From IMG/VR virus record IMGVR_UViG_647533159_000005: 11,837 nucleotides of DNA; one strand, given 5' to 3'. Source of the stretch: a virus. Taxonomy: Duplodnaviria; Heunggongvirae; Uroviricota; Caudoviricetes. Position 1 is the stretch's first letter. Each line of letters opens with the position of its first letter. This document shows positions 6,001 to 9,000 of the stretch, in pieces. Position numbers: made by a program.

Positions 6001-9000
6001 ACGGGGATAACATCCCGTTTTAATTCACAACAGCGAACAGAGTAATTACAGGGGAAGGCATGACAACGCTGACCATTAACCGAAAACCGAAAGGCATTTA
6101 CGGCACGCAGTCAGAAACGACGCAGGCGGCACAGCAGCAGGATAAAACCACATCGGCGCATAAAGTGATACCCGGCAATCAGAACGCACAGCAGAAGCCC
6201 ACAGGGGCGACACCGTGGCGGCATATGACCAAACGCCAGCGTAAAAACCGCAGACGCGTTAACCGCCTTATTGAATTGTGGCCTGACTTATTCAACAGGG
6301 AAGCACCGAAGCCGCTGAAGGTGGGGATATTTGACGACCTGATGCGGGATATCGCCGCCAGGGGGCTGACATTCGGGCCGGGGGCATTACGTGCGACGCT
6401 GGCATCCTATGCGCAGTCTCCGCGCTATTACCGCGCCCTGATAGCTGGTGGCGCACGTTACGACCTGAAAGGCCAGCCATGTGGGGAAGTGACACCACAG
6501 GAACAGCAGGAGGCAGAAACGCGGCTGGCAGCACTGAATGAAAAGCGCAAACGTCAGGCGACAAAGGAGAGGACAGGCGCATGATTCGTGACAGCAAAGC
6601 GGAAGAACTGGAGACTAAAGGCCTGTACCGGAGAGCGGCGGCGCGGTGGGCTGAGGTCATGCAGCTGGTGAACACCGATAAGGAGCGCGAACAGGTGGCA
6701 AAGCGTCGTGCGGAATGCATCCGCAAGGCAGCACGCCCACCCGTTATGGCGGATAACTTCGGGGCGCTGAAAGAGGCTGTAAACCGCACTCATGCGGTGA
6801 TGGGGATGGAAGACGCGGGTAAATCCGTCTGGCGGAACTACCCGAAGCAGCCTGGCAGCAACCAGTGATGCCGGATATTATCCTGAAAAATGATCATCAC
6901 TCCCGTGGGCGGATAACATAAAATCCTGCATATGCGCACATACACAGACGAAGCCGGAACAATCCGGCTTTTTTTACGGGTCCTTCCGGAGGGGGGGGCC
7001 TTACCGTGGGGCGACGGACGCGCGGGAATCGCCAAATTTTCGCATTTTTATCGGTCATCACCACCAGCGCAATTTATTGATAATGAAGGTTAAAAAAAAT
7101 TCCCGGTGTCGAAAACGCCTGTTTTTTGTTCATCACTGAATCATGCGCATCATGATACCAAGATACCCGGTATTGCTGCGTGATAACCCACAGGACTGGT
7201 GGCGATGCGTTATGGTCCGTGCGTTGCCATCTTCCTGGCCTGATGGCATTATCCGGCATGAACGAGCGGTTATTCTCCGTACTCTTAATCGTTGTTCATG
7301 GTTATTTGCTTTGTGGTAGCTAACATTTCCTGATGGTTATTATCCTTCTGCCCCGTAATCACGGGGATTTTTTTACCCGCGTTCTGCCGTTCTCCCCTGT
7401 GCTGTTGGTAGCGTCACGATGTGTCACGGCATGTCACCATCACGTCACGCTGATTGCGAAAGCCAGGATTAACCAGTACCGGAACGGGTAGCCCGATGTA
7501 TTGTTACCGTCCTGCCGGCTGGTGGAGTAATTGATAACGGTTATCATCAACGGGAGGGGCAGATCAAATCCCTGTGGCCCTGGATGTCAGGGACCGCCTG
7601 CCAACCCTTCTTCGCATCGCCGCAGGTTCGAAAACTTTTTTTTGGGAAGGTGCGCACAGAGTTGATAGATAAAACCTATCAGAGAAAATCACGTCAAACC
7701 CGCGTCATTGCTGGCATCGTTAAAAAAACTCACTCCACCAGCAGACTAAAAAACCGCGATTTTTCCGGTTTTATGGGCTGAAAAGGGGCTCCCTAAAAAA
7801 CATCTCTCACACTGCCGGACGGAGACGGAGATTTTTACGGGTCCTTTCCGGAGGTCTGAATACCGGGGGTACGAATACGCGCAATTCTTAACTGTTTATG
7901 AAAATTTTTAGGGGAAAAGCGTGTCGGTACTTCTCGCGCATAACTGTTTGTTTTCATTAAAATCGACAATCGGAAACATACGACACCATAACACCGGAAA
8001 ATCCCGTTTTTCTGGCGTTTCATGTCGGAGGTGGTTTTTGATGAGGATTTGATAGATGAATGTTAACAAAAAGAGACTGGCGGAGATTTTCGGTGTTGAT
8101 CCGCGCACAATTGAACGCTGGCAGACGCAGGGCCTTCCTCATGCATCTGGTGGCGGAAAAGGCGTGGAAGTGACTTTCGACTCTGCACAGGTGATCGAAT
8201 GGTATGCCCAGAGGGAGAAGGACATCGAAAACGAAAAACTCCGCAGGGAGCTTGATGATTTACGTGCTGCTGGTGAATCAGATTTACAGCCAGGCACAAC
8301 AGAGTACGAACGCTACCGTCTCACCAAAGCACAGGCGGACGGGCAGGAACTGAAGAACGCCAGAGAGACAGGGGAAGTTATAGATACTGAGTTCGCACTC
8401 TGTGCGCTTCGTGGTCTGGCGCGCCAGATTTCTTCGATCATGGATAGTTTACCGCTCACAATGCAAAGGCAGTTCCCCGCGATGACTCCGGCAATGATCG
8501 AGGGCCTGAGGAAAGAAACAGCACGCGCCTGTAATGCGTGCGCTAAAACTGCCGATAATCTACCCCGCATTCTGGAAGACTACCTGATGGAAACAACCGG
8601 AAACGTGCCGGAGAAATTACGGCAACAGAAAGGTGAGCGACAACCGCGCAATTATTGAACAAAACAGAGAAAGGATCTGATAACGTCATTTTTGGCCCAA
8701 AATGACCACTGTCAGATCCTTTCTTTTTTTGATGATTTTACGATTAAACAATGAGTTACAGAGAAGAAGAACGGATCTGACTTTTCCCGAAAAATTTTCA
8801 TAAACAGTTAAGAATTGCGCGTACCCGTCCCCCCGGCGCTTAAGGTTCCGGAAAGGACCCGCAGGAAATAGCTACCGTAAGGCGTAATTAAATATCCGGG
8901 GATGTGCCACGGAACAGCCTGCTGAATACAGGTCAGCGTGATGACGGTAAATAAAGAGAATATACGAGAAGGAAAAATATTAGTTTAAAAACTAATGTCC

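Follow-up and report, generated by a model that had tools for sequence, protein, structure and literature searches.

Introduction

A FinO-like gene beside a PerC-like gene has been in print since the 2010 genome paper of enteroaggregative Escherichia coli (EAEC) 042, where ROD34 at tRNA-Pro was annotated with Ec042-2429 ('similar to proQ') and Ec042-2430 ('PerC-like') (PMC2808357). The PerC variants of E. coli phage-inducible chromosomal islands (PICIs) have been described (PMC6092414), and pchE in O island 51 (OI-51) adjoins a single-stranded-DNA-binding gene (PMC3378721). On plasmids, FinO and FopA serve their cognate antisense RNAs (PMC9977716, PMC7491321). A FinO-like gene in a PICI has received an annotation remark only (PMC13612085), the paper on EcCIMP1_025 mentions no FinO partner (PMC11773190), and our literature search found no functional study of a satellite FinO protein. 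In this work, we analysed the finO-perC1 gene pair in the IMG/VR virus record IMGVR_UViG_647533159_000005, a stretch of 11,837 nt that is referred to at its full length as the window. By its gene content, the window holds a phage satellite of the PICI type from an Escherichia chromosome. The gene pair consists of known families in a known kind of element, and it is already annotated in RefSeq.

The satellite FinO-domain protein is common and conserved, and its role is the main point of interest. The explanation towards which we lean, if only by a little, is that the pair forms a two-gene satellite cassette that encodes a FinO-architecture RNA-binding protein and a PchE-like PerC protein, with the mechanism given in the Discussion.

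Results

The finO-perC1 gene pair

The features of the gene pair are as follows.

6060..6584, plus strand: finO-like gene, open reading frame (ORF) of 174 aa, PF04352 match with E=1.8e-24
6581..6868, plus strand: perC1, PchE-like PerC-family gene, 95 aa, PF06069 match with E=4.4e-36
6564..6584, plus strand: translational-coupling junction with an AAGGAG Shine-Dalgarno sequence (6564-6569) and an ATGA overlap (6581-6584), read from the sequence

The ATGA overlap is formed by the ATG of perC1 (6581-6583) on the TGA of finO (6582-6584). The AAGGAG Shine-Dalgarno sequence of perC1 lies inside the 3' end of finO, 11 nt 5' of the perC1 ATG. This junction is kept in the related loci L001, L002, L003, and L006, and L004 has ATGAgtATGA. 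By species, the ATGA and the Shine-Dalgarno sequence are kept in the E. coli and E. ruysiae relatives, and E. albertii has the ATGAgtATGA variant. The pairing was also surveyed in an IMG/VR sample of 80 loci (66 distinct sequences), where an [A/G]TGA overlap is found in 53/53 loci with adjacent finO and perC. The ATGA coupling claimed by an earlier prediction on this DNA (the original prediction) is therefore upheld by the overlap, the Shine-Dalgarno sequence, and the adjacent loci.

The coupling is retained across alleles with FinO identity of 77-97%, and on both DUF927+ssb and D5-type primase backbones. As one part of the explanation that we slightly favour, perC1 would be translated by re-initiation at the ATGA overlap. 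Both finO and perC1 are under purifying selection, with dN/dS of 0.2-0.3 for finO and perC alike over dS of up to ~1.

The FinO-like protein

The original prediction placed a FinO-domain protein coupled to a PerC-like activator at 6060-6868 and proposed profile searches for the ProQ/FinO and PerC families. Both families were matched far beyond chance, and the PF04352 match, the fold, and the RNA-contact residues of the FinO-like protein agree. The PF04352 match scores 86.2 bits (cutoff 27) and spans residues 64-167 of the protein and positions 5-107 of the 109 profile positions. The protein consists of a conserved N-terminal motif, a variable linker (~17-57) that is predicted to be disordered, the FinO domain (~58-145), and a long C-terminal helix.

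The profile of 18 homologues matches the N-terminal domain of ProQ (ProQ-NTD; 5nb9, 5e-19), FinO (1dvo, 2e-17), RocC (7rgt, 8e-14; also 7rgu), and NMB1681 in PDB. The AlphaFold2 (AF2) model has a predicted local distance difference test (pLDDT) score >90 in the domain from about residue 60. The N-terminal 57 residues have low confidence in the model and are probably disordered. All 26 of the Foldseek matches against PDB at E<=0.001 are FinO-domain structures (NMB1681, RocC, FinO, and a Legionella ProQ homologue), with target-normalised template modelling scores (TM-scores) of up to 0.85. The ProQ residues K35/R58/R69/Y70/R80/D82 align with K87/R111/R122/Y123/R133/D135 in the FinO-like protein, and Y123, R133, and K87 are invariant among the 18 homologues.

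The N-terminal motif of 16 aa, MT(T/K)LTI(N/S)RKPKGIYG, has dN of ~0.03 where dS is 0.3-0.5 in most comparisons. Constraint at the nucleotide level on the 5' end of finO was excluded because synonymous changes occur there, and it is therefore the peptide and not the DNA that is conserved.

The FinO-like protein scores below both NCBIfam cutoffs, with 67 bits against 136 for FinO (PRK13754) and 56 against 127 for ProQ (PRK04950). ProQ has a linker and a C-terminal domain, and a protein of 174 aa is too short to hold them. The low scores and the short length therefore place the protein on a separate branch of the family. Its family relationship identifies it as a FinO-architecture protein that is expected to bind RNA. 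No finO homologue above 41% identity was found among the deposited phage genomes.

A finO gene of the same lineage was also observed on a different island type in several hundred genomes, as in L008 (8846-9360, E. coli E06), with a domain identity of ~78%. Islands of this type also hold H-NS-like, YagK/YfjJ, and nSTAND NTPase genes. The finO gene of L008 is annotated as two overlapping ORFs, namely a peptide with the N-terminal motif and a FinO domain of 114 aa. Among the finO matches in E. coli genomes that are partial (60% coverage), most span the query stretch of the L008 copy.

The PerC-family proteins

The second gene of the PerC family is located at the far end of the island.

11529..11837, plus strand: perC2, second PerC paralogue, PF06069 match with E=9.6e-23

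The PF06069 matches score 123.5 bits for perC1 and 80.7 bits for perC2 (cutoff 22.6), in agreement with the family that the original prediction assigned to both genes. PerC1 and PerC2 are ~45% identical and are therefore diverged paralogues, as had also been predicted. The perC2 ORF stops at the last base of the window, and its RefSeq orthologues start at the ATG at 11535, two codons inside the start that was given earlier.

PerC1 is 62% identical to PchE of the Sakai strain. Its identity is ~50% to PerC-family proteins of 104 aa that are encoded on E. coli plasmids; these are taken to be PchABC-like by their length, their RefSeq label being only PerC family. PerC1 is 100% identical in L002 and L006, where its RefSeq entry is WP_000617445.1. 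The perC2 gene is 99% conserved in L001, L002, and L006, although the integrase and attachment site of L006 differ. The conserved N-terminal core of the family is present, and the residues D4, A7, E8, L10, E11, G14, R17, R18, A19, A20, R22, W23, and C46 are invariant. The AF2 model of PerC1 has four helices, the N-terminal three of which resemble TPR repeats, and the PDB sequence search with PerC1 gave no match.

The PerC proteins of the window score 17.7 and 19 bits with the ANR model NF033650, below its cutoff of 32. Sub-threshold ANR_neg_reg matches are found in 21/24 PerC-family sequences at residues ~6-52 (best E=1e-5), which suggests remote homology between PerC and ANR and not membership.

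A PerC protein that is 65% identical to PerC1 was also observed in NZ_CP148430.1 (H108), a 12,152-bp circular record filed as a plasmid. This record may be an excised circular satellite.

Distribution of the gene pair

The arrangements found among the 66 distinct IMG/VR loci are as follows.

43 loci: finO directly followed by full-length perC
14 loci: finO with no perC within 1.2 kb
4 loci: finO, an inserted ORF of 138 aa, and a perC remnant
3 loci: reversed order, perC-finO
2 loci: finO and perC adjacent, perC fragmented

The loci that have finO without perC include capsid-forming PICI (cf-PICI)-type elements with the order ssb-finO-capsid-protease-portal. In the protein collection, no finO variant is commoner than the arrangement with the inserted ORF. 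In L007 and L009-L013, this 138-aa ORF (5479-5895 in the coordinates of L009) has no Pfam match and shares 20 nt with the 3' end of finO. It has taken the place of the 5' end of perC, which survives as a frameshifted remnant. The adjacent pair is found on DUF927+ssb modules and also beside D5-type primases, near which there is no PICI-type ssb. The model PICIs EcCICFT073 and OI-51/Sp7 of Sakai (EcCIEDL933) have the order ssb-perC without finO, which may explain why the gene went unexamined. The finO and perC genes are an often co-inherited and co-translated cassette of separable modules, not an obligate pair.

The frequencies among 5426 complete E. coli genomes, which are rough figures, are as follows.

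1821/5426 genomes: PICI-type ssb, any match
1095/5426 genomes (~20%): finO, any match
374/5426 genomes (~7%): finO, at least 80% coverage
257/5426 genomes: finO-perC region, at least 80% coverage
64/5426 genomes: perC2

The satellite context

The gene pair closes the early (replication) gene block of the satellite at its distal end. The other features of the window are as follows.

1..1242, plus strand: tyrosine integrase (Pfam Phage_integrase, Arm-DNA-bind_3, and Phage_int_M), orthologues of which adjoin tRNA-Pro
1774..1980, plus strand: alpA, PICI activator family (Pfam Phage_AlpA, E=4.5e-8)
2719..2799, plus strand: best sigma-70-like promoter (about 2760-2789, TTGACG-16-AATAAT) and three GTGTCC(G/C)ACA repeats
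3743..4057, plus strand: DUF4222 gene, RgdR-like (Pfam DUF4222, E=8e-18)
4054..5363, plus strand: DUF927 primase/helicase gene, internally deleted (PHROG DNA primase matches on both fragments)
5390..5540, no strand assigned: putative replication origin with TAACCCGCAAAA-type iterons (tandem repeats 5392-5410 and 5465-5536)
5601..6023, plus strand: satellite ssb, 36-nt spacer to finO (Pfam SSB, E=3e-16; TIGR00621)
6950..6976, plus strand: operon intrinsic terminator, 9-bp stem GAAGCCGGA/UCCGGCUUU followed by a U-run (RNA fold)
8056..8658, plus strand: Nu1-type small terminase gene terS, packaging module (Pfam Phage_Nu1, E=6e-68)

The hallmarks of a PICI are present, namely a terminal int, alpA, pri-rep with an iteron origin (ori), a size of 8-15 kb, and a partial virion/lysis set, in which terS is the sole virion/lysis gene among the ORFs scanned in the window. 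In PICIs, the ori usually lies downstream of the primase (PMC6092414), as do the iterons here, and the order ssb-[finO]-perC is recurrent across the relatives. The close relatives are located at tRNA-Pro in the yejM-yejO interval, and others are located at a second site with a different integrase. The mobile-island context of the original prediction is confirmed by these satellite genes and by the relatives at tRNA-Pro. The window starts at int and stops at the stop codon of perC2, and the att sites are therefore outside it.

The primase of the window lacks aa 205-471 (~800 bp) and has a frameshift. In tblastn, the intact L001 primase aligns in two parts; its aa 1-204 match in frame 1, its aa 472-707 in frame 3. 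There is a short overlap at the deletion junction. The satellite in the window is therefore probably replication-defective. The small gene between ori and ssb of the relatives is absent as well (5549-5572 of the window corresponds to 9157-9542 of L001).

The DUF4222 protein is 39% identical to ECs1581 (RgdR) of Sakai and has the same position upstream of the primase, with RPD where RgdR of Sakai has its RGD motif. RgdR is a published regulator of motility and of LEE (locus of enterocyte effacement) (PMC3378721). The 2760 promoter is divergent from a small YlcI/YnfO-type gene (~2697-2521, minus strand). The three GTGTCC(G/C)ACA direct repeats bracket this promoter and look like protein operators, and 2719-2799 is, as read from its motifs, probably the operator/promoter switch of the satellite and the start of a rightward early operon. 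We infer that this operon extends to finO-perC.

The packaging/accessory segment is rearranged in the window, which has terS and an orphan F4/K88 fimbrial gene, with perC2 at the far end. The F4/K88-family fimbrial subunit gene at 9188-9988 (Pfam Fimbrial_K88, E=3e-52) is satellite cargo; the window yielded neither an usher nor a chaperone gene to go with it, and L001 holds the same cargo inverted. Two pairs of inverted repeats (6999-7087/10337-10425 and 7838-7953/8746-8861) are 76% complementary and flank the terS and fimbrial segment. A 33-nt direct repeat ending in TTTTTACGGGTCCTT is present at 6953 and 7814. The stretch 7003-8961 has the opposite orientation in L002, and in comparison with L001 and L006, pieces are inverted or stand in another order. 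The repeats around this segment may be cos-type packaging or recombination sites; the lambda cosN sequence is absent from the window, and the idea of cos sites shortly after perC therefore gained no support.

Candidate RNA partners

When the full length of the window was scanned with Rfam at E<=1, the only match was a spurious one to a eukaryotic small Cajal body-specific RNA (scaRNA), and RNAs of the C4/CI, IsrK, or FinP kind were not found. The leader downstream of the 2760 promoter has no complementary repeats of the seqA/B/C type, and RNA immunity of the P4 style was therefore rejected for it. The terminator hairpin of perC1 was rejected as a FinO-specific ligand, since Sakai Sp7, which lacks finO, has it too, downstream of pchE, and many finO-positive loci do not have it. 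In related loci, a hairpin of the 6950..6976 type follows the last gene, whichever it is.

Two structured stretches were identified. The first is 2135-2005 on the minus strand, 130 nt between two strong intrinsic terminators of the same strand (2162-2137 and 2039-2012), which folds into four hairpins (z=-3.2, 0/200 shuffles as good) and could be a small RNA or a structured 3' untranslated region (3'UTR) convergent with alpA. The second is 7224-7375 on the plus strand, where a promoter-like TTGCCA-17-CATTAT with an upstream TG is followed after ~100 nt by the terminator CCCCGTAATCACGGGG and a T-run. The promoter-to-terminator unit 7258-7375 folds with z=-2.5, and 7224-7375, which may be a small RNA gene, lies within a conserved stretch of 1.3-1.5 kb that has no annotated gene in L001 and L002. 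Considered as FinO partners, both 2135-2005 (minus) and 7258-7375 (plus) are kept by close relatives only (L001 and L002 for 2135-2005) and do not track with finO.

Discussion

Proposed mechanism

Family membership, predicted fold, conserved RNA-contact residues, coupling, purifying selection, and satellite context are established in this work. The two-gene cassette would act as follows. The finO and perC1 genes would be transcribed with pri/ssb from the early operon, which AlpA would activate on helper-phage induction; in a model PICI, AlpA activates the PICI genes upon induction of the helper (PMC6092414). By analogy with the plasmid proteins, the FinO-like protein may bind hairpin-plus-3'-tail structures (terminators and antisense stem-loops) on a few satellite, helper, or host transcripts, and may stabilise the bound RNAs or promote their pairing as in FinO-FinP/traJ and FopA-Inc/repZ. 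The PerC-like protein is probably no classical DNA-binding activator. More likely, it would serve as a small adaptor built of helices, through which silencing complexes of the H-NS type are remodelled or other regulators are bound. Such an adaptor/anti-silencing mode has been reported for Pch proteins, by which H-NS silencing is relieved (PMC4764244), and has been proposed for ANR proteins. Overall, the pair would tune the expression of the satellite and incidentally of host adhesion/motility genes, rather than activate LEE in particular. If the FinO-like protein acts on satellite, helper, or host RNAs, FinO-domain riboregulation extends from plasmids and chromosomes to phage satellites.

Several points weigh against this mechanism. 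There is a weak hairpin at the 3' end of ssb, and co-transcription from the early promoter is something that we infer. The steady-state level of PchE is reported to be low and to fall on SOS induction (PMC7369912), which is a poor fit to simple AlpA-driven expression. The island is not AT-rich (GC ~50%, and 55-60% over ssb-finO-perC) and is therefore no obvious H-NS target; AT-richness was accordingly dropped as a hint of one. The TPR-like fold match of PerC1 concerns a helical hairpin of 50 residues and is unspecific. The finO gene is found without perC in 14/66 distinct IMG/VR loci, the commonest finO variant has no more than a remnant of perC, and the model PICIs have perC without finO. Since each gene occurs alone, any joint mechanism is dispensable. 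No RNA ligand for the FinO-like protein was found by the Rfam scan or by folding of the candidates in the window, the operon terminator hairpin is also present in finO-less satellites, and the candidate structured RNAs are conserved in close relatives only.

Alternative explanations

The cassette might serve the satellite life cycle only, which we regard as possible but doubtful. FinO would then act through an antisense RNA of the satellite or the helper to control satellite replication, induction, or interference with the helper. PerC1 would drive or de-silence satellite or helper late genes, and the host effects would be artefacts of overexpression. Such a role fits the location of the cassette between the replication genes and the packaging region, its retention in the minimal 8-kb island of 042, and its presence in the same slot on three satellite backbones. 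Short PerC-like proteins are also found in lambdoid phage genomes, and FinO-domain proteins of mobile elements act on the antisense RNAs of their own replicon (PMC9977716, PMC7491321). However, well-transferring model PICIs lack finO (PMC6092414), the cassette is intact in the window though the satellite primase is destroyed, and no antisense RNA was found in the window by Rfam, folding, or leader inspection.

A more specific proposal is put forward tentatively, as we consider it unlikely. The FinO-like protein would be a dedicated chaperone of a satellite or helper antisense or terminator RNA, which would set satellite replication/induction or sabotage helper expression, and the co-translated PerC would be an anti-silencing/anti-activator adaptor. 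The two would make up a portable cassette with two layers of control (RNA and nucleoid/regulator) that moves between backbones. If true, the proposal would provide the first case of a FinO-domain regulator with a demonstrated action in phage-satellite conflict.

The original prediction considered that the island may be a mobile regulatory input to host programmes, and implied that its PerC-like protein activates LEE. In its strong form, the cassette would be a horizontally moved virulence switch whose PerC-like protein activates ler/LEE1 or an equivalent host regulon. We find this improbable. The protein belongs to the PerC family in Pfam, PerC and PchABC activate LEE1 (PMC3378721, PMC4764244), LEE expression falls when OI-51, with its pchE and rgdR, is deleted (PMC3378721), and an RgdR-like DUF4222 gene is also present in the window. 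However, the effect of OI-51 has been mapped to RgdR and not to PchE, and PchE is the closest characterised relative of PerC1 (62% identity). PchE and the CFT073 homologue, which are encoded by the PICIs EcCIEDL933 and EcCICFT073, are reported to leave LEE1 fusions unaffected, and EcCIMP1_025 represses LEE1 (PMC11773190). Overexpression of PchE lowers curli and adhesion and raises flagellar expression (PMC7369912). The cassette is also found in strains from seawater, laboratory mouse, and pig (enterotoxigenic E. coli, ETEC) and in EAEC 042, which are listed by source and not by LEE status. A mobile regulatory input to the host thus stays plausible, with precedent in PchE and EcCIMP1_025, whereas LEE activation by it is not supported. 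The label 'PerC family' on a PICI gene does not predict LEE activation, which calls for caution in studies of virulence regulation.

That the genes are non-functional or decaying passengers whose overlap is an accident of compact phage-like gene packing is hardly credible. In favour of decay, the window holds a degenerate element with a deletion in its primase, the commonest finO variant has perC as a frameshifted remnant, and 4-nt overlaps are common in phage-like operons. Against it, both genes keep dN/dS of 0.2-0.3 at dS of up to ~1, the N-terminal motif is under strong constraint, the residues for RNA contact are all retained, and the overlap is present in all 53 adjacent loci.

Comparison with known systems

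The FinO-like protein shares the FinO domain and the six equivalent conserved residues (K35/R58/R69/Y70/R80/D82) with ProQ, the chromosomal global RNA chaperone, but it is shorter and falls below the equivalog cutoff (56 vs 127 bits). It resembles FinO (IncF) and FopA (IncI pCol1B9) in having a FinO domain on a mobile element, an N-terminal basic extension, and no C-terminal domain of the ProQ type. The domain identity to IncFII FinO is 41%. The N-terminus of IncFII FinO is PVLTLKRRP, and both proteins have the motif LT(L/I)x(R/K)(R/K)P, a short resemblance that is only suggestive. In contrast to FinO and FopA, the satellite protein is encoded by a phage satellite and not by a conjugative plasmid, it is below the NCBIfam FinO cutoff, and no antisense RNA equivalent to FinP or Inc was found on the satellite.

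The PerC proteins share PF06069 and the core AExLExKG(L/F)(Y/W)RRAAxRW with PerC of the enteropathogenic E. coli (EPEC) EAF plasmid and with PchA/B/C of enterohaemorrhagic E. coli (EHEC) prophages. However, PerC1 is just ~50% identical to the 104-aa proteins taken to be PchABC-like, and its closest relatives give no reason to expect LEE1 activation. The ANR family (Aar and relatives) also consists of small helical proteins, but the PerC proteins have an additional C-terminal half. EcCIMP1_025 is likewise a PICI-borne PerC-family protein with weak ANR similarity, as for the PerC proteins of the window (PMC11773190). It belongs to another PICI lineage, is reported to be ~40% identical to the CFT073/EDL933 homologues, and is compared with PerC1 here by description only (PMC11773190).

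PchE of O157:H7 (OI-51/CP-933C/Sp7), a group 3 PerC homologue, and the EcCICFT073 homologue occupy the same slot right after the satellite ssb as PerC1, which is 62% identical to PchE. Both of their islands differ from the window in having no finO between ssb and perC and in having capsid-type genes, and Sp7 also has portal and terminase genes. ROD34 of EAEC 042 is a minimal element of 8.2 kb without terS, the fimbrial cargo, and the second PerC, and its perC begins 3 nt past finO with no overlap. Both ROD34 and the window element share the same site (tRNA-Pro, yejM/yejO) and the same order int-alpA-icd-DUF4222-DUF927-ssb-ProQ/FinO-PerC, with 83% DNA identity over ssb-finO-perC.

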